A DNA stretch of 64,000 nt. It comes from Kiritimatiellia bacterium (GTDB lineage: Bacteria; Verrucomicrobiota; Kiritimatiellia; JAAZAB01). A program made the position numbers and the translations under genes. Location of the stretch: NCBI GenBank assembly GCA_028715905.1, contig JAQUQV010000002.1:15979-79978 (forward strand), given 5' to 3'. Positions 5,200 through 46,037 of this stretch are shown here, piece after piece (position 1 is the first letter of the stretch; each line of letters opens with the position of its first letter). The notes under the pieces are model-generated. The model saw only the letters and a program-made list of their open reading frames with translations, did no database searches and was not told the DNA's origin.

Positions 5200-5934
5200 A
5201 TGGCTGTAAAAAAACACCGGAAGAGCAGATACAAACGGGTTCTTTTAAAACTGAGCGGCGAAACTATGCAAAACGCCCGGACCGGGCAGAGCATTGATCC
5301 GGGCGTTGTGCGGCGCGTGGCCCAAAGCATTAAAGCCGGCCGGCGCATGGGCGCCCAGATTGCCATTGTCATCGGCGGCGGCAACATTTTCCGGGGCGGC
5401 AACGGCCAGAACCACGGCATTGACCGCAACACCGGCGACTATATGGGCATGCTGTCAACCGTCATCAACGCCCTGGCCCTGCAGGACGCCCTTGAAAAAA
5501 TCGGCATAAACACCCGGGTGCAGACGGCGATTGAAATGAAACAGGTGGCCGAACCTTTCATCCGCCGGCGCGCCATCCGCCATTTGGAAAAAGGGCGGGT
5601 GGTCATTTTCGCGGGCGGCACGGGAAATCCTTATTTCACCACCGACAGCGCCGCCGCGCTGCGGGCCAATGAAATCAAGGCGGATATCCTTCTCAAGGCG
5701 ACCAAGGTTGACGGGGTCTACAACCGGGACCCACTGAAAGACGCATCGGCCCGAAAGTACATGCGGATATCTTTCCACAAAGCCCTGGTGGATACGCTTA
5801 AAATCATGGATTCGGCCGCGTTTTCGCTCTGCATGGAAAACAACATTCCGGTTATTGTGTTTGATTTTTTCAAGGATGAAAACATGCAGCGCGTCCTGGC
5901 CGGCGAACGGGTCGGCACGCTGATTTCCAACTGA
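5200..5934 (+). CDS. pyrH: UMP kinase
   Basis: VLLKLSGE and the GGGNIFRG amino-acid-kinase family motifs; 244 aa. Confidence 0.9.
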   Translation: MAVKKHRKSRYKRVLLKLSGETMQNARTGQSIDPGVVRRVAQSIKAGRRMGAQIAIVIGGGNIFRGGNGQNHGIDRNTGDYMGMLSTVINALALQDALEKIGINTRVQTAIEMKQVAEPFIRRRAIRHLEKGRVVIFAGGTGNPYFTTDSAAALRANEIKADILLKATKVDGVYNRDPLKDASARKYMRISFHKALVDTLKIMDSAAFSLCMENNIPVIVFDFFKDENMQRVLAGERVGTLISN

Positions 5935-5944
5935 GGAACTGGTC

Positions 5945-6508
5945 ATGGAGACTCTTGACGATATTCTTCTGAGCGCCGAAGAACAGATGGAAAAGGCCCT
6001 GGAATTTGTCTTGCAGCAGTTTGCCGGCCTGCGGACCGGCAAGGCTTCGGCCGGCATGGTTGAACATCTGCAGGTTGCTTACTACGGGTCTACGGTGCGT
6101 CTCCGCGAAATAGCCGGCATTGCCACGCCGGACGTGCGTTTGATTGTCATCAACGCCTACGATCCCACCGCTCTGCCCGCCATTGAAAAAGCGATCATCG
6201 CCGCCAACCTGGGGGTTACCCCTTTGAACGACGGCCGCGTGATCAGGGTCCCCATACCGGAATTAAGCGAGGAACGCCGCCGCGAACTCGGTAAAATCGC
6301 CCGGCAAATGACGGAAAAAGGCCGGGTCGCCGTCCGGAGCATCCGCCAGGACGCGAACGAAAAAATCAAGGCGCTCGCCAAGGAAAGCAAAATCACCGAA
6401 GACGAAAAGGACAACGGCTTGAAGGAAATCCAGAATCTGACCGACGGTTACATCAAAAAACTTGACGAAAACCTTGAACGCAAGGAAAAAGAAATGATGA
6501 CCATATAG
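5945..6508 (+). CDS. frr: Ribosome recycling factor
   Basis: Full-length RRF homology (187 aa) in the conserved pyrH-frr arrangement. Confidence 0.95.
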   Translation: METLDDILLSAEEQMEKALEFVLQQFAGLRTGKASAGMVEHLQVAYYGSTVRLREIAGIATPDVRLIVINAYDPTALPAIEKAIIAANLGVTPLNDGRVIRVPIPELSEERRRELGKIARQMTEKGRVAVRSIRQDANEKIKALAKESKITEDEKDNGLKEIQNLTDGYIKKLDENLERKEKEMMTI

Positions 6509-36806: not shown

Positions 36807-38111
36807 TTGACGATGAAAAGATTATTACTGGTTGCGATGGGACTTTTGGTTGCGGCGGCCTGTCCGGGGGCCATGCATTACGTGGTGACGAACGGGACGC
36901 CGGGATGGACCGGCGCTGTTGATCCCTACACCAACTGGGCCACGGCCGGAACAAATATTATTGACGTGGTCAATGCCGCCATGACCAACGACGAACCAAG
37001 ACTGGTGCTAGTCTCCAACGGCACGTATTATCTGACCAACCAGGTGCTGATAACCAACGCCCTGACAATCCGCGGGGTCAAAGGCCGGGAGGCAACGATT
37101 GTGGATGGAGGATACGGGATGCCGACGAACACCTATGGGGGATGTTTTTATCTCTTATCGGGTGGCGGTGCGAAGACGTTGGATGGGTTTACGATTACTA
37201 ACGGATGTGCAACTTCAGGCGGTGGTGTTTATATGGCCAACGATGTCAGTAATACTGTTAAAAATTGTCGGATAACAGGGTGCGTGGCTACCAATACGTT
37301 TGGCAGTCTGGCCAGCGGGGGTGGGGCTTATGTCTGGCGTGGAGTTATGACCAATTGTGAAGTTATTGGGAACATTAACTATAACTGCTATGGCGGAGGA
37401 ATTCTTCTGCGACGCGGTATAGTTGCGAGCTGTGTCGTTGCTCAAAACACGGTATACCAGGGAAAAACAGGGAATGAAGTTACGGGCGGCGGAATACATA
37501 CTTTTGAATCTACTAGTTCCATTAATAATTGTGAAATTTATAGTAATGAAGTTGTCGGCACCTATCTAATAGGCAGCGGCGTGGCCTTGAAGGACAATGC
37601 GGTTTTGCGTAATTCGCTAATCTATGGCAACATGGGCCAGCATGCAGTGTCTATCTATAATACAGGGGGAAAAGTTCAGAATTGCACAATAGTAGGTAAT
37701 AAGGCTGGAGGAATTTATCTTTATGCTGCTTCTACATATACCGGTTGTATTGAAAATGTCGTCAGTTATTTCAATGTGGGATCGTCTGATAGTAATGTTT
37801 ATTTTAATTCCAACGGCAAAGGTTCTTACCAAATAATCAACAGCTGCATTGCGCCCACTAACACCTTTCCGACCAGTGGAATCGAGGGATATTATTACGC
37901 CGGTAATATTGAGTCCGATCCACAGCTCGCGGATAAGGACAATAATAATTTTCGACTGGCGCAGGATTCTCCCTGCGTCAATGCCGGCACGAACCAGGAA
38001 TGGATGACGAACGCGGTTGATCTGGACGGCGCCGCGCGCATCCGCTACGGCCGGGTGGACATGGGCGCCTATGAACGCATCTATCACGGCGTCGTCTACG
38101 GCGTGCGATAA
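36807..38111 (+). CDS. Secreted right-handed parallel beta-helix repeat protein with a choice-of-anchor-Q-type C-terminus
   Basis: Signal peptide. G/N/T-rich beta-helix rungs (NCxIxGN repeats). C-terminal DLDGAARIRYGRVDMGAYE motif. Confidence 0.6.
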   Translation: MTMKRLLLVAMGLLVAAACPGAMHYVVTNGTPGWTGAVDPYTNWATAGTNIIDVVNAAMTNDEPRLVLVSNGTYYLTNQVLITNALTIRGVKGREATIVDGGYGMPTNTYGGCFYLLSGGGAKTLDGFTITNGCATSGGGVYMANDVSNTVKNCRITGCVATNTFGSLASGGGAYVWRGVMTNCEVIGNINYNCYGGGILLRRGIVASCVVAQNTVYQGKTGNEVTGGGIHTFESTSSINNCEIYSNEVVGTYLIGSGVALKDNAVLRNSLIYGNMGQHAVSIYNTGGKVQNCTIVGNKAGGIYLYAASTYTGCIENVVSYFNVGSSDSNVYFNSNGKGSYQIINSCIAPTNTFPTSGIEGYYYAGNIESDPQLADKDNNNFRLAQDSPCVNAGTNQEWMTNAVDLDGAARIRYGRVDMGAYERIYHGVVYGVR

Positions 38112-38194
38112 AACCTGATGGCAAGCCTAAAGGGCGTGTTGCCCAAACGATGAAAAAGAGAATAACGCCGGCGAACGGGACGCGGGGAATATTT

Positions 38195-38228
38195 GCCGGG
38201 AAATTTTCGGATGGCGGCCTGCCGCCTT
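38195..38228 (+). repeat. 36-bp conserved motif copy 3
   Basis: gccgggaaattttcggatggcggcctgccgccttgg; compare 9411..9446. Confidence 0.5.
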
Positions 38229-38319
38229 GGATCATTCCGTTTAAAACCTGGCCACGCACAGCGCGTGGTTGGCCTGCAGCTGGGCAGGCATATGACAGTT
38301 TTGCGAAGATGATGAACCT

Positions 38320-38367
38320 GTAGGGGCGCCACCCCGCTGGCGCGATAATTCGCCTCAGCGGGGCTCC
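38320..38367 (+). repeat. REP-like GC-rich hairpin element beginning GTAGGGGCG
   Basis: GTAGG head plus a ccccgctg...cagcgggg stem; similar heads at 47101 and 47255. Confidence 0.3.
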
Positions 38368-38407
38368 TCCAGCGGTCTAATAAAGCGCGAAGCGCGGGGG
38401 ATTTGTG

Positions 38408-39505
38408 ATGAACACGCCGTATTATCTGATAGACGAAAGCAAACTGCTCGGGAATCTTAAAATCATCCGGCGGGTGCGCGCCTATTCGGGCGCAAAGTCC
38501 GTGCTGGCGCTTAAATGTTTTTCAACCTGGAGCGTGTTTCCCCTGATGCGCAGATACATGGACGGCACCACGAGCAGTTCGCTCTTTGAGGCCCGCCTGG
38601 GGTATGAAAAATTCGGGGGGGAAACGCACGCCTACAGCGTCGGGTTTTCCAGGGAGGACGTCAAGGCCGCCGCTGAATTCGCCGATAAAATCATCTTTAA
38701 TTCGGTTTCCCAGCTTGAAGCCCATGGAGCCGAAGCGCGCGGTCCGCAGATCGGTCTGAGGATCAATCCGGGAATCAGTTATTCGCATTACGATCTGGCC
38801 GACCCGGCCCGTAAATATTCGCGTTTGGGCGTCAGGGACCGGCGCGAATTGATGCGGGTATCCCGCCTTGTCAGCGGCGCGATGTTTCATTTTAACTGCG
38901 AGAACGGCGACTTTAAAAATTTTGCGGCGGCCCTGGATTTCATCGGGCGCAATTATGCCGGTTTCCTTGAGAAACTGGAATGGGTCAGCCTGGGCGGCGG
39001 GGTAACCTTTACCGGACGGAAATACCCGCTTGAAAAATTCTGCCGCCTGTTGAAAAAATTCAGCGAGCGGTTCGGCGTGCAGGTTTATCTGGAGCCGGGC
39101 GAGGCGGTTATTGCCGGCTGCGCCGAGCTGGTAACGACGGTGCTGGATGTTGTGCGCAATAAAATTGACATCGCCGTCGTGGATGCTTCCACCGAGGCGC
39201 ACATGCTGGACCACCTGGTTTATCGGACCAGCGCGCGGATTGCCGCCCCGGGGCGGGGACGCTTCCAGTGCATGATTGCCGGCCGTTCCTGCCTGGCGGG
39301 AGACGTGTTCGGCCAATACCGCCTTGCGAGAAGGCTGAAGTCCGGCGATATTGTCCGCATCGCGGACGCGGCCGGATACACAATGGTCAAAAAGAACTGG
39401 TTCAACGGCCTGCCCATGCCGGCCATTTGCGTGAGAAGGCTGGATGGAACATTTACTACGGTCAGAAGTTTTGGATACAAGGATTATGTTGCCAGTCTGT
39501 CATAA
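38408..39505 (+). CDS. nspC: Carboxynorspermidine/carboxyspermidine decarboxylase (PLP, fold III)
   Basis: The N-terminal TPYYLIDE and the overall NspC homology; 365 aa. Confidence 0.8.
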   Translation: MNTPYYLIDESKLLGNLKIIRRVRAYSGAKSVLALKCFSTWSVFPLMRRYMDGTTSSSLFEARLGYEKFGGETHAYSVGFSREDVKAAAEFADKIIFNSVSQLEAHGAEARGPQIGLRINPGISYSHYDLADPARKYSRLGVRDRRELMRVSRLVSGAMFHFNCENGDFKNFAAALDFIGRNYAGFLEKLEWVSLGGGVTFTGRKYPLEKFCRLLKKFSERFGVQVYLEPGEAVIAGCAELVTTVLDVVRNKIDIAVVDASTEAHMLDHLVYRTSARIAAPGRGRFQCMIAGRSCLAGDVFGQYRLARRLKSGDIVRIADAAGYTMVKKNWFNGLPMPAICVRRLDGTFTTVRSFGYKDYVASLS

Positions 39506-39694
39506 AAAGGAATTTGAAATTTCTCTCGGCTTCGGTACGCAGGAGGAAATCAACGAATCAATTCAGTTAATCGAGAAGCACTTCTGAGTTTCGGCATAAA
39601 GAAACACACAAAACAGATGTTTTGCCAGACTGTCTCCAGCGCGCTGGGCGCGCTTCCAGTAGTGGGTGATCTTTAACGTTTGGAGAAGGAAATA

Positions 39695-40699
39695 ATGCAG
39701 ACGAACATGCAGAATGGGGAGACGAGAGGAGAAATCGTTATTTACCGGGCGAAGGATGGGCGGACCAGCCTGGAAGTCAACCTGCATCAAGAGACCGTCT
39801 GGCTGACACAGTCCCAAATGATTGATCTGTTCCAGAGGGATCAATCGGTCATTTCGCGTCATATTCATAACGTGTTCAAAGGAGGAGAGTTGCATCCGCA
39901 AAGCAATATGCAAAAAATGCATATTGCCGGGTCAGATAAACCCGTGGTGATGTACAGTTTGGACATGATCATCTCAGTCGGTTACCGGGTTAACTCCCGG
40001 CGTGGCACGGAGTTCCGCATATGGGCAACGCAAGTCCTCAAAGACCATATTCTTAAAGGATATACGGTCAACGAAAAGAGACTGCGTGAACAGGCAACGC
40101 GATTCAAAGAACTACAAGAAGCCGTTGACCTGATGGGCCGGATCATGCAAGACCGGCAATTGGCAGGTAACGAAGCAGAAGGTCTGCTCAAGATCATTGC
40201 CAACTACTCGTTGGCTCTGTCGCTTCTTGATCAGTATGACCATCGGCAATTGGCGTTTCGTGACACCACCTTGACAACGTCTTTTGTTATGACATACGAG
40301 TTGGCCAAGAAAGCCATTGCAAAGTTGGCGGAACAGTCGCCGTTTGGTGGCGGGCTTTTCGGTCAGGAGAAAGACGCGTCCTTTAAAGGTTCGCTTGGCG
40401 CCATTTATCAAACTTTCGGCGGGCACGAGCTTTACCCAAGTATTGAGGAAAAAGCGGCTCATCTTTTATATTTCGTGATCAAGAACCATTCTTTTGCCGA
40501 CGGCAATAAACGGATTGCCGCCTTCTTGTTCGTCTGGTTCATGGACGCTAACCGGATTCTGTACCGGAAAGACGGGACCAAACGCATCGCAGATAATGCG
40601 CTCGTCGCGCTTACACTCCTGATCGCGGAAAGCAAGCCGAAGGACAAGGATATCATCGTCAAAGTGTTGGTGAATCTGATTAATAGAGGAAATGTTTGA
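39695..40699 (+). CDS. RhuM-family protein with a C-terminal Fic/Doc domain (Doc-type HxFxDGNKR motif)
   Basis: RhuM-like N-terminus (GEIVIYRAKDGRTSLEVNLHQETVWLTQSQMIDLFQRDQSVISRHIHNVFKGGEL). The Fic/Doc active-site motif HSFADGNKRIAA. A GGAG RBS lies before the ATG at 39695. Confidence 0.7.
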   Translation: MQTNMQNGETRGEIVIYRAKDGRTSLEVNLHQETVWLTQSQMIDLFQRDQSVISRHIHNVFKGGELHPQSNMQKMHIAGSDKPVVMYSLDMIISVGYRVNSRRGTEFRIWATQVLKDHILKGYTVNEKRLREQATRFKELQEAVDLMGRIMQDRQLAGNEAEGLLKIIANYSLALSLLDQYDHRQLAFRDTTLTTSFVMTYELAKKAIAKLAEQSPFGGGLFGQEKDASFKGSLGAIYQTFGGHELYPSIEEKAAHLLYFVIKNHSFADGNKRIAAFLFVWFMDANRILYRKDGTKRIADNALVALTLLIAESKPKDKDIIVKVLVNLINRGNV

Positions 40700-40709
40700 A
40701 AAGGAAATT

Positions 40710-42092
40710 ATGAAAAAAAACATACTTATCATAGGCGCCGGCGGGGTGGCGCATGTTGCGGCCCACAAGGCAGCCATGCATAACGATTTGCTCGGCGATA
40801 TCTGCATCGCGTCGCGCACGCAATCCAAATGCGATGCGATCATCCAGAGCGTTAAGAGGAAAAATCATGTCAAGGACAAGTCAAAAAAGCTTTATTCCCG
40901 CCGGCTTGACGCGCTTGACGTTTCCGCGACCATGCGGTTGATCAAGGCCGCCCGGGCCGGGATTGTCATCAACCTTGGCAATGCGTTTGTCAATATGTCG
41001 GTTCTGGAGGCATGCCTGGGAACCGGCGCGGTTTACCTGGATACCGCCATTCACGAGGAACCTGACAAAGTCTGCGAAAACCCGCCCTGGTACGCCAATT
41101 ACGAATGGAAGCGCAAAGCCCGCTGCCGGAAAAATGGTCTGACCGCCATTCTCGGCGTCGGTTTTGATCCGGGCGTGGTCAACGCCTATTGTGCCCTGGC
41201 GGCGAAACATTATTTTGACAAAATTGACACAATTGACATCATGGATGTCAATGCCGGCCGCCACGGCAAATATTTTGCCACCAATTTTGACCCGGAGATT
41301 AATTTCCGCGAGTTTATCAAAGTCTGGACATGGATTGACCGGCGCTGGAAACAATATCCCACGCACTCCGTCAAGCGCGTTTACGATTTCCCGGTCGTCG
41401 GTCCCCAGCCGATTTACCTGAACGGGCACGACGAACTGCATTCGCTTTCCAGAAACATTGACGCCAACAGCATCCGGTTCTGGATGGGATTCGGCGACCA
41501 CTACATCAATGTTTTTACCGTGCTCCGCACGCTCGGCTTGCTTTCACATCTGCCGGTAACGCTCGGCGCGGGGCAAAAAGTCGTGCCGTTGAAAGTTGTC
41601 AAGGCGCTTTTGCCGGACCCGAAGACGCTCGCGCCCAGCTACACCGGCAAAACCTGTATTGGCAATTTTGTCAGGGGATGGAAAAACGGGAAGAAACGGG
41701 AGGTTTTCATTTACCAGGTTTCGGACCATAAGAAATGCTATCGCGAGGTAGAATCCCAGGGCATCAGTTACACGGCCGGCGTGCCGCCGGTGGCCGCGGC
41801 CATGCTCGTGGCCAGGGGCGTCTGGGACCCGAAAACCATGGTGAACGTGGAAGAACTGAATCCCGATCCCTTCATTGCGATACTTGACAAGATCGGCCTG
41901 CCCACGGACGTCAGGGAAATCAAGCCCGGAAGCAGGGATTCGTTTAACGGCACAGTCGGCAAGATAGAAAATGAACTTGAGAAATCTACCGCAACGGTTA
42001 CCGTCTCTGCCGCCAACCCGATGATTGCCGTGGGGCCTGTTTCCGGAACCGCGCAACAAAAGAAGAAAAAAATATACGGATTCGGCAGATAA
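40710..42092 (+). CDS. Carboxynorspermidine synthase/dehydrogenase (saccharopine dehydrogenase family)
   Basis: N-terminal Rossmann motif MKKNILIIGAGGVAHV and full-length similarity to CANSDH-type saccharopine-dehydrogenase-like enzymes; the usual partner of nspC. Confidence 0.75.
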   Translation: MKKNILIIGAGGVAHVAAHKAAMHNDLLGDICIASRTQSKCDAIIQSVKRKNHVKDKSKKLYSRRLDALDVSATMRLIKAARAGIVINLGNAFVNMSVLEACLGTGAVYLDTAIHEEPDKVCENPPWYANYEWKRKARCRKNGLTAILGVGFDPGVVNAYCALAAKHYFDKIDTIDIMDVNAGRHGKYFATNFDPEINFREFIKVWTWIDRRWKQYPTHSVKRVYDFPVVGPQPIYLNGHDELHSLSRNIDANSIRFWMGFGDHYINVFTVLRTLGLLSHLPVTLGAGQKVVPLKVVKALLPDPKTLAPSYTGKTCIGNFVRGWKNGKKREVFIYQVSDHKKCYREVESQGISYTAGVPPVAAAMLVARGVWDPKTMVNVEELNPDPFIAILDKIGLPTDVREIKPGSRDSFNGTVGKIENELEKSTATVTVSAANPMIAVGPVSGTAQQKKKKIYGFGR

Positions 42093-42209
42093 AAACCGCG
42101 CGATATTCTAACGTGATGGAATATAAAGAGCGCCTTAATCAACTTTGGGGTTGTCAAAGTTGAGGTGAAAAGAAAAGTCAGGCAGTTGACCAACTGAGGA
42201 ATAGTGGAT

Positions 42210-42235
42210 TTACAGGATAAAAAAGTATCCTGTAA
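42210..42235 (+). repeat. Perfect 10-bp inverted repeat TTACAGGATA-N6-TATCCTGTAA
   Basis: Seen directly in the sequence. It lies between the CANSDH gene and a degraded ORF. Confidence 0.35.
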
Positions 42236-42594
42236 TCCTGTCGATTCTTTTCTGCGGATTGCTAAATAGCCGCGCTGATGTATCCGCGCCGCCGGCGTTC
42301 ATACGGGATTACCGGTTCTGGAAAATGTTCAAGCGCTTTGACAAAATCACCGGTCTCAAATCCCGGAATGCGATGCTTGATTTTGACGCGCAGGATTTCC
42401 TGGAAAATCGCCAGCATGGCCGGTTTTAAGCAGGTCAACGGTCTGTTCAAACTGGCGCTGGAGCCGTTCCGGATGCAGGGCGCTGTATAGGAAGAATATT
42501 CATGACTATGGACGCATGACGTTAAATCTAATTCCCCCTTGTCAAATAATTATTCCCTGCGGATTTGCGGGGGGATAAAATTATAAAAATATTA

Positions 42595-42622
42595 TTTACA
42601 ACAATATACAATAATGTATATT
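42595..42622 (+). promoter_or_regulatory. Promoter (TTTACA-N16-TATATT) with an embedded operator palindrome ATATACA-ATAA-TGTATAT for the abiE operon
   Basis: A perfect 7-bp inverted repeat (42604..42621) overlaps the -10 element. It ends 2 nt before the first ATG, which suggests autoregulation and a possibly leaderless mRNA. Confidence 0.4.
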
Positions 42623-42623
42623 A

Positions 42624-43271
42624 ATGATTATGAGATTTGGAGAGCTTATTAAGGCTGTCAGGGAGATGCCGCATTTTGACCTGGCAGCGATTGTGCAACT
42701 CGCGGGAGAGCCGAGGCAATCCTTGCGCATGCAGTTGTCCCGCCTGATCAGACAGCGAAAAATTATTTCCCTTCGGCGCGGCATGTATGTGTTGGGCGAG
42801 CTGTACCGGAAGGTGAATCCGAATCCGGCAGTAATGGCGAACCGGATTTACACACCATCGTACCTGAGTTTTCACTGGGCGCTGGGATATTACGGAGTGA
42901 TTCCGGAGAAGGTTGTTTTGTTCACAAGCGCAACCGCGCGTGTGCCACGGTTATTTAAGAATGAGTTCGGAAGTTTTCAATACAAACATATCAAACCGGA
43001 TTGTTTTACCGGTTACCAAACCGTAGACATAGATGGCCAAAAGGTTCTGATCGCCGTTCCCGAGAAAGCCCTGCTGGATCTCTGGCATATTGAAAACAGG
43101 GAGTGGACAACAGAACGTATGGCCAGCATGCGATTCCAGAACTTTGAAATCGTGTCACGGAAGAAGTTGGAAAAATATGCGGAATTGTATCAATCGTCCC
43201 GTCTTCTCCGGGCTGTCAAGAATTGGCGGGTATATGTTAAAGCGGAGATGGAAGGGGCAAAGGAATTATGA
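42624..43271 (+). CDS. abiEi: AbiEi-type antitoxin/transcriptional regulator (type IV TA / abortive infection)
   Basis: An N-terminal winged-helix-like region upstream of, and overlapping by 4 nt, an AbiEii-family gene; size 215 aa. Confidence 0.65.
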   Translation: MIMRFGELIKAVREMPHFDLAAIVQLAGEPRQSLRMQLSRLIRQRKIISLRRGMYVLGELYRKVNPNPAVMANRIYTPSYLSFHWALGYYGVIPEKVVLFTSATARVPRLFKNEFGSFQYKHIKPDCFTGYQTVDIDGQKVLIAVPEKALLDLWHIENREWTTERMASMRFQNFEIVSRKKLEKYAELYQSSRLLRAVKNWRVYVKAEMEGAKEL

Positions 43272-44074
43272 AAGACGAGGTTATCAGTCTGACCAGAAAT
43301 ATCGCAGATCCCGCCCAGCGCCTTAATGTGCTTCGGGAATATCTGCAGGTGCTGGTAATGCGTTCGTTTCATGAAAGCGAAGCTTTCCAATGCATCGCTT
43401 TTGTCGGCGGCACGGCGTTGAGATTTTTATACGGATTGCCGAGATTTTCTGAGGATTTGGATTTCTCGCTTGATTCCAAAGATAACTATTTCCCCGAGAA
43501 ATGGTTGAGCAAAACAAAGCGGGATCTTCAGCTTGCCAGCCTCGACGCCACGGTTACTTTGAATGACCGCAAGACAGTCCACGTAGCTTGGATCAAGATT
43601 GGCGAAGTTCTCAAAGATGTTGGACTGGCCGCAATGGTCCAACAGAAACTATCAATCAAACTGGAGATTGATACGCGCCCCCCGGGCGGGGCGCAGACCC
43701 GGAATCAGGTTATTGAACGTCATCGGATGTTTGTGGTCAGATGTTATGACCTGCCGTCGCTTATGGCCGGCAAACTGCACGCGTTGATTACGCGCCAGCA
43801 TTGCAAGGGCAGGGACTGGTATGACTTTCTCTGGTACCGGGCGCAACGGCCGCAGCCTGAGCCAAATCTTTTGTTGTTGCAGAATGCGCTGGATCAGACT
43901 GAGGGCAAAAGCGCATTTAAAAGCGGCCAGTGGAAAGATCTCGTGCGCGACAAGATCGGCAAATTGAATATCAACCAGGTGAGGCAAGATATTCGTCCGT
44001 TCCTGGAAGAGCAGAGAGACGTGGATTTGATTACAAAAGAAAATCTGGAATCCCTGCTGAAACCCATCGGCTGA
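43268..44074 (+). CDS. abiEii: AbiEii/AbiGii-family nucleotidyltransferase toxin (DUF1814)
   Basis: Motif FVGGTALRFLYGLPRFSEDLDF typical of DUF1814 nucleotidyltransferases; 268 aa; ATGA overlap with abiEi. Confidence 0.75.
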   Translation: MKDEVISLTRNIADPAQRLNVLREYLQVLVMRSFHESEAFQCIAFVGGTALRFLYGLPRFSEDLDFSLDSKDNYFPEKWLSKTKRDLQLASLDATVTLNDRKTVHVAWIKIGEVLKDVGLAAMVQQKLSIKLEIDTRPPGGAQTRNQVIERHRMFVVRCYDLPSLMAGKLHALITRQHCKGRDWYDFLWYRAQRPQPEPNLLLLQNALDQTEGKSAFKSGQWKDLVRDKIGKLNINQVRQDIRPFLEEQRDVDLITKENLESLLKPIG

Positions 44075-44103
44075 TATGGAATATTTTGGCGGGCGGCCGG
44101 CCG

Positions 44104-45186
44104 TCATTTTGCCGGCGGAATATGGCGCAGGGCGGCGTCGGCCAGGACCAGGGCGGTCATTGCTTCAACAATCGGCACGGCCCGCGGAACAACACAGGGA
44201 TCGTGCCGGCCCTTGCCCTCCAGCAGGGCCGGGCGGCCGTTAAAATCAGCCGTGCGCTGTTTTCGGGCGATGGTTGCCGCGGGCTTGAAGGCCACCCGGA
44301 AGAAAACCGGCTCGCCGTTGCTGATGCCGCCCTGGATGCCGCCGCTGTTGTTGGTCAGCGTTCCCAGGCGTTTCCCCTTTTTGACAAAGAGGTCGTTATG
44401 TTCTGAACCGCGCATTTGTGCCGCGGCGAACCCCGACCCGATTTCAAAGCCCTTTGCGGCCGGTATGGATAACATGGCGTGCGCCAGCAGGGCCGGCAGT
44501 TTGTCAAACACCGGCTCGCCCCAGCCGGCCGGGACCGGCCGGCAGAGGCAGGTGATTATTCCGCCGATGGAATCGCCGGCGGCGCGGACTTTTTCTATTT
44601 CAGCTTCCATTTCTTCCGCGGTTTTTGCGTCAGGACAACGGACCGCGTGTTTATCCACGGCGGCGCGGGCGGGCGGCGCGGCGCTTAAATCCGGCGCCGC
44701 GATTCGGCCGACCGAACTTACCCAGGCCGTGATTCGCACGCCGTGTCTGACGGCGAGCAATTTTTCCGCCACCGTTCCGGCGGCGACGCGCGCCGCGGTT
44801 TCGCGCGCGCTGGCCCGTCCTCCGCCGCTGGCCGCCAAAATGCCGTATTTTAAAAGGTAAGTCAGGTCGGCGTGCGCCGGCCGGGGAACGTTTGAGAAAC
44901 GTTTGTAATCAGAAGAGCGCGCGTCGGTATTGCCTACTAAAAGCGCGATCGGCGCGCCGGTCGTCATCCCTTTTTCTATTCCGGAAAGAATGCTTACCCG
45001 GTCCGCTTCCTGCCTTTGGCTGGTCAGCTTGCTTTGCCCCGGACGCCGCCGGTCAAGCTGGTTTTGCAGTTCCTTTTCTGAAATTGGAATCCTTGAGGGA
45101 CATCCGTCAATGACCGCGCCCAGGGCCGGGCCGTGGGATTCACCGAAGGTTGTTACCCGGAAAACTTTTCCAAAAGTGTTTGACAT
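44104..45186 (-). CDS. aroC: Chorismate synthase
   Basis: [16 protein letters not shown] and full-length AroC homology. Confidence 0.9.
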
Positions 45187-45317
45187 GATTTTACCTTTCT
45201 GCGGGCAAGAATAATACAAACATTTTTTTTATTCAACTGCAAAAACCGGCTATTGACGATGACTTTTAATACGCTATTCTAAATCGGCGGTAAAAACGCA
45301 ATTTTGAAAGTGGAATT

Positions 45318-46037
45318 ATGAACCATGATGCGCCGGGCGAAGGGATAGTTGCTGCCGGAAAAGGCGGGGAAGATATAGAAACGATTGATTTTATCAGCCT
45401 TGGCAGGGGATTTTCGCGCATGTTCTGGGGGCTGGCGCTGGCCGCGGTTTTGTTTTTGAGCCAGGCGAAGTTTGAGTTTTTTGCCAACATCCGCCTGCCG
45501 GCCTGTTTTCTGGGAATTGCGTTTTATTGCTGGGGGCTGCTGACTTTACTGCGTGCCGGAAAAATAAGCTCCGGCTGGAATTTTCATGTGGGGCTGGCGC
45601 TATTGCTGGCGCTGCTGGAAATATATTTTTTTCCGTTTGTGCGCTGGTGGCGCGCCATGCCGTATGTTTCCTTTTTCACGTTTAACGTCGGCGCGCTGGC
45701 CGCGGCGGTTATTGTTTCTCTTTATTTGAGCAATATCATCGCCGCCGATTTTTTCAATCGCCTGTCTTTGAAGAAAGAGCGCCTGGAATCCCGGATTTAT
45801 GCCGGCACGGTCGCGGTTTTTATGGCTCTTCCGCTTCTGGCGGCGGTCGTTTTGGCAAATTTTTCCGCCCGGCGCTACCAGACCATGTTTCTGGACGAGC
45901 TGGCCGGCTTGGCGCATGATGTGCCGATATGGCTTTATATTATCGTTACCGTGCCCTATTCATTAACCCTGGCGGTTTTGTGGAAGGCGCGCGACCGCAG
46001 TTATCAGAAATTTTATCAGGCAGGAACGACAAGCTGA
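45318..46037 (+). CDS. Hypothetical polytopic membrane protein
   Basis: Five to six predicted TM helices; no family recognised. Confidence 0.5.
   Translation: MNHDAPGEGIVAAGKGGEDIETIDFISLGRGFSRMFWGLALAAVLFLSQAKFEFFANIRLPACFLGIAFYCWGLLTLLRAGKISSGWNFHVGLALLLALLEIYFFPFVRWWRAMPYVSFFTFNVGALAAAVIVSLYLSNIIAADFFNRLSLKKERLESRIYAGTVAVFMALPLLAAVVLANFSARRYQTMFLDELAGLAHDVPIWLYIIVTVPYSLTLAVLWKARDRSYQKFYQAGTTS

Follow-up and report, generated by a model that had tools for sequence, protein, structure and literature searches.

A RhuM–Doc fusion gene lodged in a norspermidine operon: a candidate single-gene toxin or defence module apparently moved by recombination in its flanking genes

How does a gene for a putative toxin come to lie between two genes of polyamine biosynthesis, and what might it do there? 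The question is raised by a stretch of 64,000 nucleotides (nt) of contig JAQUQV010000002.1 from a Kiritimatiellia bacterium (assembly GCA_028715905.1, positions 15,979 to 79,978; hereafter the window), in which nspC, encoding carboxynorspermidine decarboxylase, and the gene for carboxynorspermidine dehydrogenase/synthase (CANSDH) are separated by an open reading frame (ORF) that joins a Virulence_RhuM domain to a Doc-type Fic domain (Table 1). An earlier reading made from the letters of the window (the sequence-only reading) had proposed that this RhuM/Doc gene splits a normally adjacent gene pair and that, together with an AbiE pair further downstream, it forms a small defence or addiction islet riding on the polyamine operon. 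Our analysis points to a gene that came as half of a two-gene insert and probably moved between lineages by recombination in its flanking genes; we hold it moderately probable that its product is a self-contained RhuM/Fic/DOC protein acting in abortive infection or as a toxin.

That the gene is a newcomer to the operon can be read from the organisation of the pair elsewhere. Among 80 species-representative loci fetched around CANSDH homologues, nspC lies directly upstream of CANSDH, on the same strand, in 74; the gap between the two is at most 60 nt in 59 loci and reaches a maximum of 532 nt, as against 1204 nt in the window, and in none of those 74 loci does a RhuM/Fic gene stand between them. 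The two genes are thus normally adjacent, as had been proposed, and because they are contiguous without the RhuM/Doc gene in 74 of the 80 species, we take a tight nspC–CANSDH pair to be the ancestral state and the RhuM/Doc gene to be an insertion. Its content of guanine and cytosine (GC) is indeed lower than that of its surroundings, as the sequence-only reading had remarked, although the difference is modest: 0.490 against 0.563 and 0.539 in the flanking genes and 0.541 in the window, and, at third codon positions, 0.588 against 0.678 and 0.675 in the flanks. The gene stops 10 nt short of the CANSDH start codon and therefore lies inside the operon. Since it is co-oriented with the operon, ends this close to CANSDH and is accompanied by no terminator above chance level, it is most likely co-transcribed with its neighbours; a scan for promoter-like and terminator-like sites at the insert returned both at chance level only.

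Signs of transposition and of RNA elements at the insert were sought and not found. No tRNA was detected at the locus, and the sole Rfam match in 37500-45500, to isrK, does not exceed chance (20.3 bits, with a gathering score of 50; E 0.57). A 29-nt direct repeat at the starts of the RhuM/Doc gene and of CANSDH (22 of 29 positions matching) and the exact 10-mer AAAGGAAWTT, which occurs just twice in the window, directly after the stop codons of nspC and of the RhuM/Doc gene, were considered as a target-site duplication left by transposition and rejected: AAAGGAA-N3-4-ATG also precedes unrelated genes (33588, 43259), the count of AAAGGAAWTT with one mismatch is that of chance (18 versus 17), and the repeat represents local ribosome-binding context. 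The flanks of homologues, compared on both sides in 14 contexts, likewise have nothing in common that could mark the ends of a mobile element.

The composition of the insert becomes apparent on comparison with a second lineage. The same 334-amino-acid (aa) protein, identical throughout, is called at the same place in two other assemblies (L001 and L002), and an 87%-identical protein (P0003) occupies the same nspC–CANSDH position in contigs L003-L006 and L097 of a related lineage. In the L003 lineage, an additional ORF of 255 aa (orf255; L003:2853-3620) lies between nspC and the RhuM/Doc gene; in the window, alignment with the L003 DNA reveals a clean deletion of ~700 nt, with its junction near 39517, and a 3' remnant of orf255. 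The original insert comprised two genes, orf255 and RhuM–Doc, of which the window lineage lost orf255 by this clean deletion. The 189 nt upstream of the RhuM/Doc gene consist of the remnant and a spacer only, with no Phd-type antitoxin gene among them, so that the sequence-only reading was correct in seeing no obvious antitoxin nearby; it had missed the remnant.

We considered orf255 as an antitoxin or partner of RhuM–Doc and rejected it, as searches of Pfam, NCBIfam, PHROG and PADLOC return nothing for it and as its homologues, which share 70-75% identity across phyla, never stand beside RhuM–Doc or nspC in the loci read. As a family, orf255 has a constant length of 255 aa and the same high identity across Planctomycetota, Sumerlaeota, Victivallales, Gemmatimonadota and others, with varying neighbours; the gene is strongly conserved, apparently mobile and as yet uncharacterised.

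The route by which the insert came to be shared is suggested by the uneven divergence of the two lineages. Homology between the window and L003 extends from the start of nspC to the stop of CANSDH, with no synteny outside this block, and whole-gene synonymous divergence (dS) is 1.14 for nspC and 1.12 for CANSDH, as compared to 0.43 for the RhuM/Doc gene. Codons 100-305 of nspC differ from L003 with a dS of 2.1-2.3, no lower than from other species (L009, L011), whereas codons 305-365 have a dS of 0.40 to L003 and of 1.1-2.0 to other species; the nucleotide identity profile steps likewise, and the 3' end of nspC, from ~39320 onwards, falls within the exchanged tract. Beyond it, dS is 0.2-0.33 in the RhuM/Doc gene outside one patch and 0.8-1.2, depending on the segment, in CANSDH. 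Because the cassette, at a dS of 0.2-0.4, has diverged far less than the nspC body (~2), the simplest reading is a lateral exchange by homologous recombination, with breakpoints in the conserved nspC and CANSDH flanks; the exchanged segment would run from the 3' end of nspC through orf255 and RhuM–Doc and perhaps into the 5' end of CANSDH. The exceptional patch, in the N-terminal part of the RhuM/Doc gene, has a nucleotide identity of 0.59-0.70 to the L003 allele, as against 0.9-0.97 on either side, a dS of 2.8 and a ratio of non-synonymous to synonymous divergence (dN/dS) of 0.11. Positive selection on this part of the N-terminal domain was considered and rejected in view of the saturated dS and the low dN/dS, and the patch is best read as an older allele segment brought in by recombination.

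The sequence-only reading would have counted as refuted if relatives proved to have the gene here in a conserved housekeeping role. The same gene does occur there in L003-L006 and L097, yet it is not a housekeeping gene, because the 74 other species lack it, homologues of 74-80% identity stand elsewhere, and the dS of the cassette is far below that of the nspC body.

The encoded protein bears out the two-domain architecture read from the letters, a RhuM-like N-terminal domain followed by the Doc motif HSFADGNKR. Translation could alternatively begin at a TTG at 39680, giving a protein of 339 aa. Pfam Virulence_RhuM (PF13310) scores 75.2 bits against a cut-off of 33.7 (aa 86-147 counted from the TTG, 81-142 from the ATG), and Pfam Fic/DOC (PF02661) scores 45.5 bits against a cut-off of 24 (aa 231-288 from the TTG, 226-283 from the ATG). 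The catalytic motif, numbered from the ATG in Table 1, has what we take from the Doc literature to be the Doc form, HxFx(D/N)(A/G)NKR, and it is not lost on alignment: in a set of 96 diverse family members with identities as low as 35%, each of the residues H, F, D, G, N, K and R is present in 90-96. In place of the AMPylator form GNGRxxR, the protein has GNKRIAA, with lysine for glycine and without the final arginine, and this lysine-bearing, non-AMPylator form is found in 95 of the 96 members. In P1 Doc, the NKR motif goes with kinase activity. By its motif, the Fic domain is of the Doc (kinase) type and not of the AMPylating type, so that, of the two activities that the sequence-only reading had left side by side, the motif speaks for phosphotransfer and not for AMPylation. 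An internal inhibitory helix, which that reading had suggested looking for, finds no counterpart, as the motif (S/T)xxxE(G/N) has no match anywhere in the protein. Relative to the L003 allele, dN/dS is 0.19 over the whole gene and 0.03-0.05 in the Doc domain; the enzyme is thus intact and under purifying selection.

The family to which the protein belongs is well populated. The protein aligns along its full length (residues 16-336) with positions 4-325 of 327 of the PADLOC model PDC-S23 (PDLC04965; E 1.7e-134), which PADLOC lists among its single-gene candidates for phage defence, and the N-terminal half, over 130-200 residues, also matches many models of another such candidate, the RhuM-domain family PDC-S05 (E 1e-20 to 8e-69). 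A search of 5.8 billion proteins returned more than 8000 homologues, the best 120 listed being 60-100% identical, under names that include 'virulence protein RhuM/Fic/DOC family protein' and 'prophage maintenance system killer protein', and 1091 clusters of a 50%-identity representative library match at E<=1e-30. The gene itself is ordinary, as a member of a huge, named family, described in 2013 and already predicted to be a defence toxin; only its position and its route of arrival are slightly unusual.

Predicted structures agree with these assignments. A first AlphaFold2 model from a shallow alignment was unusable, with a predicted local distance difference test (pLDDT) score of 55.7, and a diverse alignment raised this to 84.1. 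The resulting model comprises an N-terminal domain (aa ~13-121), long helices of lower confidence (aa 123-182) and a C-terminal domain (aa ~200-330). The N-terminal domain, with pLDDT >90 over aa 40-110, has a predicted Bro-N/KilA-N-like fold, and Foldseek searches of BFVD return 'Repressor domain', BRO, KilA and antirepressor proteins (probability ~1). Kinship to the Bro-N/KilA-N DNA-binding domains is probable on this model, not proven, because the E-values are moderate (2e-4 to 1e-2) and Pfam Bro-N is unmatched; a sequence match of the domain to Pfam Bro-N or KilA-N was not found, PF13310 alone appearing even at E<=10. Streptococcal satellite phages commonly encode this domain on its own, annotated as 'putative DNA-binding protein', and it stands alone in the Wolbachia phage WO, too. 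For the C-terminal domain, Foldseek against the Protein Data Bank (PDB) retrieves P1 Doc, with template modelling (TM) scores normalised to the target of 0.70 for 3dd7_A (root-mean-square deviation 3.4) and 0.74 for 3kh2_C, both at probability 1.00; its sequence matches PHROG 577 'Doc-like toxin' (E 8.7e-16) and PDB entry 9vzc, 'Death-on-curing family protein'.

Table 1. Coordinates of the features discussed, in window numbering unless a locus is given.
Feature	Position	Strand	Description
nspC (carboxynorspermidine decarboxylase), upstream flank	38408..39505	+	TIGR01047, E 1.3e-120
3' remnant of orf255 (last 22 codons and stop)	39519..39587	+	DNA alignment; tblastn 82% identity over orf255 residues 234-255
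Spacer 5' of RhuM/Doc gene	39588..39694	+	common to L003; Shine-Dalgarno-like GGAGAAGGAAATA directly before ATG
RhuM/Doc fusion gene	39695..40699	+	intact ORF, ATG start, 334 aa; PADLOC PDC-S23
N-terminal RhuM domain (aa 1-121)	39695..40057	+	beta strands, helix-turn-helix-like helix pair, beta wing, two more helices; predicted Bro-N/KilA-N-like fold
Mosaic patch (aa 36-95, including helix-turn-helix-like helices)	39800..39980	+	diverges sharply from L003 allele
C-terminal Doc-type Fic domain (aa ~200-330)	40292..40684	+	Pfam Fic, PHROG 577, Foldseek
Catalytic motif H265-S-F-A-D-G-N-K-R273	40487..40513	+	read from sequence; Doc type HxFx[D/N][A/G]NKR
10-nt spacer AAAGGAAATT, RhuM/Doc stop to CANSDH ATG	40700..40709	+	same 10-nt junction in L003
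CANSDH (carboxynorspermidine dehydrogenase/synthase), downstream flank	40710..42092	+	NF043000, E 1.5e-141; Pfam Sacchrp_dh_NADP and Sacchrp_dh_C
AbiEi	42624..43271	+	PADLOC E 6.9e-49
AbiEii	43268..44074	+	PADLOC E 1.1e-71; Pfam AbiEii 96.7 bits
RhuM-Doc loci embedded in type I-C cas operons	L105:2581-6993; L107:3252-6993; L108:3075-7666		

What such a protein might do can be approached through the company that its homologues keep. Those of 74-80% identity sit in unrelated contexts, and across the family these include plasmid accessory genes, HipA and patatin genes, an integrase with an HD-CE/GHKL ATPase, and an HNH gene. On a Legionella pneumophila plasmid (NZ_CP016875.1; L095:3097-7002), the gene starts one base after the stop codon of a Tn3-family transposase and looks like transposon cargo. 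Homologues of ~50% identity lie within type I-C cas operons, between cas7 (interference) and cas4 (adaptation), in three metagenome loci. Homologues in other contexts show no conservation of the upstream region, and no conserved partner gene of RhuM–Doc emerged across the ~20 loci examined, which adds evidence that the protein may work without a partner and points to regulation in cis. In line with a role in defence, Anantharaman et al. (PMC3710099) propose RhuM-DOC fusions in restriction-modification (R-M) and PrrC loci as toxins in multilevel defence, and a cold-seep study reports that a PDC-S05 gene with a Virulence_RhuM domain cuts the plating of T7 and T5 ~1000-fold and that of T4 ~10-fold in E. 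coli B (bioRxiv 10.1101/2024.09.26.614923).

Some of these loci touch on polyamines or on related gene families in other ways. In L007 (GCA_005795945.1; 8450-11578), a Bro-N protein that matches PDC-S13 end to end (E 1.4e-109) is encoded between arginine decarboxylase (speA) and a gene resembling CANSDH, with which its own gene shares 4 nt, and a RhuM–Doc homologue is 5 kb off; L007 is the second case in which a polyamine operon harbours a candidate defence gene. At L124:3-1628, an 80%-identical homologue stands directly downstream of a histone-deacetylase-family gene (PF00850), a family that includes acetylpolyamine amidohydrolases, so that a polyamine connection is possible there, too. A PDC-S13 Bro-N gene also lies two genes upstream of RhuM–Doc (PDC-S23) at L103:4568-6960, which brings both families together in one locus. 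We considered a systematic link between polyamine operons and Bro-N/RhuM genes and rejected it, as it would comprise just two cases, the window lineage and L007; the 80 species loci contain no PDC-S13 or RhuM genes, and our literature search found no paper linking polyamine pathways to defence.

The AbiE pair downstream, with which the RhuM/Doc gene had been grouped into one islet, is intact. Its two genes overlap by 4 nt and constitute a type IV toxin-antitoxin or abortive-infection pair, located in the gap (42093-44103) between CANSDH and a convergent chorismate synthase gene. Together with the 531-nt spacer before it, the pair has the lowest GC content of the region (0.455-0.48), and it is absent downstream of CANSDH in the L003 lineage. 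It is a separate insertion, so that the defence pair stands and the single islet dissolves into two independent events flanking CANSDH.

Two further observations concern the operon itself. The largest nspC–CANSDH gap among the other loci, in L019 (a Victivallales metagenome-assembled genome (MAG); 5468-6000), is occupied by another small mobile gene: it encodes a 121-aa 23S rRNA intervening-sequence protein (PF05635), and visual inspection shows inverted repeats of ~28 nt on its two sides. CANSDH, in turn, keeps 70-85% identity between phyla as remote from one another as Kiritimatiellota, Gammaproteobacteria, Actinomycetota and Omnitrophota, among others (window and L009-L088), and is either extremely constrained or widely transferred, which makes it useless for the taxonomic placement of the window; the window CANSDH carries a C-terminal tail of ~50 aa past the 405-position NF043000 profile.

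Drawing on sequence and model comparisons, we infer toxicity, trigger, target and anti-phage role as follows. The insert of orf255 and RhuM–Doc arrived in the short nspC–CANSDH spacer, where it would take no part in polyamine metabolism; homologous recombination within these two conserved flanks probably carried it between lineages that are only distantly related, and the window lineage then lost orf255. Because no partner gene is conserved, the RhuM/Doc protein would be kept inactive in cis until its RhuM domain senses a phage-derived cue, whereupon the Doc domain would phosphorylate a translation factor (EF-Tu, as P1 Doc does) or another target, protein synthesis would stop, and abortive infection or growth arrest would follow. 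The EF-Tu-kinase step in particular is a tentative proposal by analogy with P1 Doc, and we are less sure of it than of the account as a whole.

Several points weigh against this account. The protein reaches 27.5 bits with the Doc subfamily model TIGR01550, below the cut-off of 38.65, and because of this score we regard it as a distant relative of Doc whose target could differ from EF-Tu. The packing of the two domains against each other is uncertain in the model (predicted TM score 0.56; linker pLDDT 56-66), which leaves autoinhibition in cis without structural support. The evidence for co-transcription with the operon comprises only the gene spacing and a promoter and terminator scan at chance level. 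Several homologues adjoin ordinary genes (rpoD, a HI0933-like flavoprotein gene, SPFH genes), and a defence-island context is therefore not universal. Our literature search found no paper on PDC-S23 itself, which is a candidate system only, and the protective PDC-S05 protein may carry a different C-terminal domain. Finally, BifA (SeseC_01334) of Streptococcus equi subsp. zooepidemicus, the one RhuM+Fic protein that has been studied, is reported to be a host-cell virulence factor (PMC6529018).

Other explanations can be set against the same observations. The RhuM/Doc gene could be a purely selfish addiction element of no benefit against phages, which persists because it is wedged 10 nt before CANSDH, because it kills cells that lose it, or both. 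Its tight embedding in the operon in both lineages would suit such an element, as imprecise loss would damage an operon under selection, and so would the similar embedding in type I-C cas operons and the combination of frequent movement with very strong conservation (the matches listed from different phyla share 60-75% identity); P1 Doc itself is a post-segregational killer. Classical addiction, however, needs a labile antitoxin, and none is conserved beside the family; orf255 was deleted cleanly without harm to the operon, so that precise loss is possible; and a relative with a RhuM domain protects against phages in experiments (bioRxiv 10.1101/2024.09.26.614923), all of which makes us think pure selfishness rather unlikely. 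A different biochemistry, in which the Fic domain AMPylates, like SoFic, FicT and VopS, or modifies a target other than EF-Tu, e.g., a DNA-bound protein, seems to us still less probable. It can invoke the membership of the domain in the Fic superfamily at a score below the Doc subfamily cut-off, the precedent of SoFic as a known AMPylating Fic-domain defence protein (PMC12249575) and the fact that BifA promotes phosphorylation of moesin, not of EF-Tu (PMC6529018); AMPylation, though, is at odds with the HxFxDGNKR motif, which in 95 of 96 members has lysine for the AMPylator glycine and lacks the final arginine of HxFx[D/E]GNGRxxR, with P1 Doc as the source of the best solved-structure domain matches, and with the lack of an [ST]xxxE[GN] inhibitory motif in the protein.

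We give hardly any credence to two further roles. As a domesticated regulator of the polyamine operon, the protein would control nspC–CANSDH through its DNA-binding domain and couple translation to polyamine status through Doc, and its occurrence at the same position in two lineages, the strong purifying selection and the predicted DNA binding of the N-terminal domain are what one would then expect; the distribution largely refutes this, as the gene is missing from all 74 other species with the gene pair, members of 74-80% identity stand in unrelated contexts, the dS of the cassette is far below that of the nspC body, and its GC content is below that of the flanks. A secreted virulence effector acting on eukaryotic cells, modelled on BifA, which has the same order of RhuM and Fic and depends on its Fic histidine for activity (PMC6529018), is just as hard to reconcile with an environmental host of the Planctomycetes-Verrucomicrobia-Chlamydiae (PVC) type (the best flanking-gene matches are in Kiritimatiellota, Verrucomicrobiota and Victivallales MAGs), with the lack of secretion-system genes nearby, and with a family that extends across free-living phyla and has members inside cas operons and R-M loci. 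The account that we prefer thus remains that of a self-contained protein acting in abortive infection or as a toxin.

Read in this way, the locus would show in a clear natural case how a toxin or defence module of one gene can live within a metabolic operon and move between lineages by recombination in the flanking genes, and its compact, intact product of 334 aa is a candidate for probing PDC-S23 defence and the EF-Tu kinase activity of the Doc domain. What the analysis adds lies in the intra-operon position and the reconstructed history of two-gene insert, deletion and lateral exchange; the protein itself adds little. A broader idea, which we offer as doubtful speculation, is that nspC and CANSDH, being conserved and often transferred, serve as portable homology arms that copy a toxin or defence cassette into distant operons, where its loss would then be difficult, since the polyamine gene behind it has come to rely on transcription and translation signals passing through the cassette. 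Parallels would be the members of this family inside type I-C cas operons and the PDC-S13 Bro-N gene in the other polyamine operon; if true generally, the idea would mean that single-gene immune modules travel and persist by way of essential-operon spacers, a strategy so far overlooked. In a stronger variant, the toxin may guard polyamine synthesis against takeover by phages.

Compared with known systems, the protein is closest to PDC-S23, the 'virulence protein RhuM/Fic/DOC family protein', with which it shares the same two domains in the same order, a length of ~330 aa, the Doc motif and the organisation as a single gene without partner; it differs from this group in location only, residing in a polyamine operon instead of R-M or CRISPR loci, plasmids and islands. 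P1 Doc, the EF-Tu kinase of the Phd/Doc type II toxin-antitoxin system, has the same type of motif and the Doc fold, in agreement with the PHROG 'Doc-like toxin' assignment, whereas RhuM/Doc scores below the TIGR01550 cut-off, carries an N-terminal extension of 200 aa (RhuM and a helical linker) and has no Phd gene. PDC-S05 is alike in its N-terminal part, but its members carry various C-terminal domains or none, and the tested member is reported only with a Virulence_RhuM domain, so its effector may differ. BifA, compared by description only, has the same order of RhuM and Fic, was horizontally acquired and needs its Fic histidine; unlike the role proposed here, it is reported to act on host moesin as a virulence factor. 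SoFic (PMC12249575) is likewise an abortive-infection toxin of the Fic superfamily, but it AMPylates, has another architecture and is followed by a small antitoxin gene (AS1), whereas RhuM/Doc has the kinase-type motif and no small gene downstream, CANSDH beginning 10 nt after its stop. In the core defence hotspots of Pseudomonas aeruginosa (PMC10250203), variable defence cargo similarly stands between conserved genes that can serve as recombination anchors; here, by comparison, the site is a spacer of 10-20 nt in a two-gene metabolic operon, occupied in one or two lineages of ~80.

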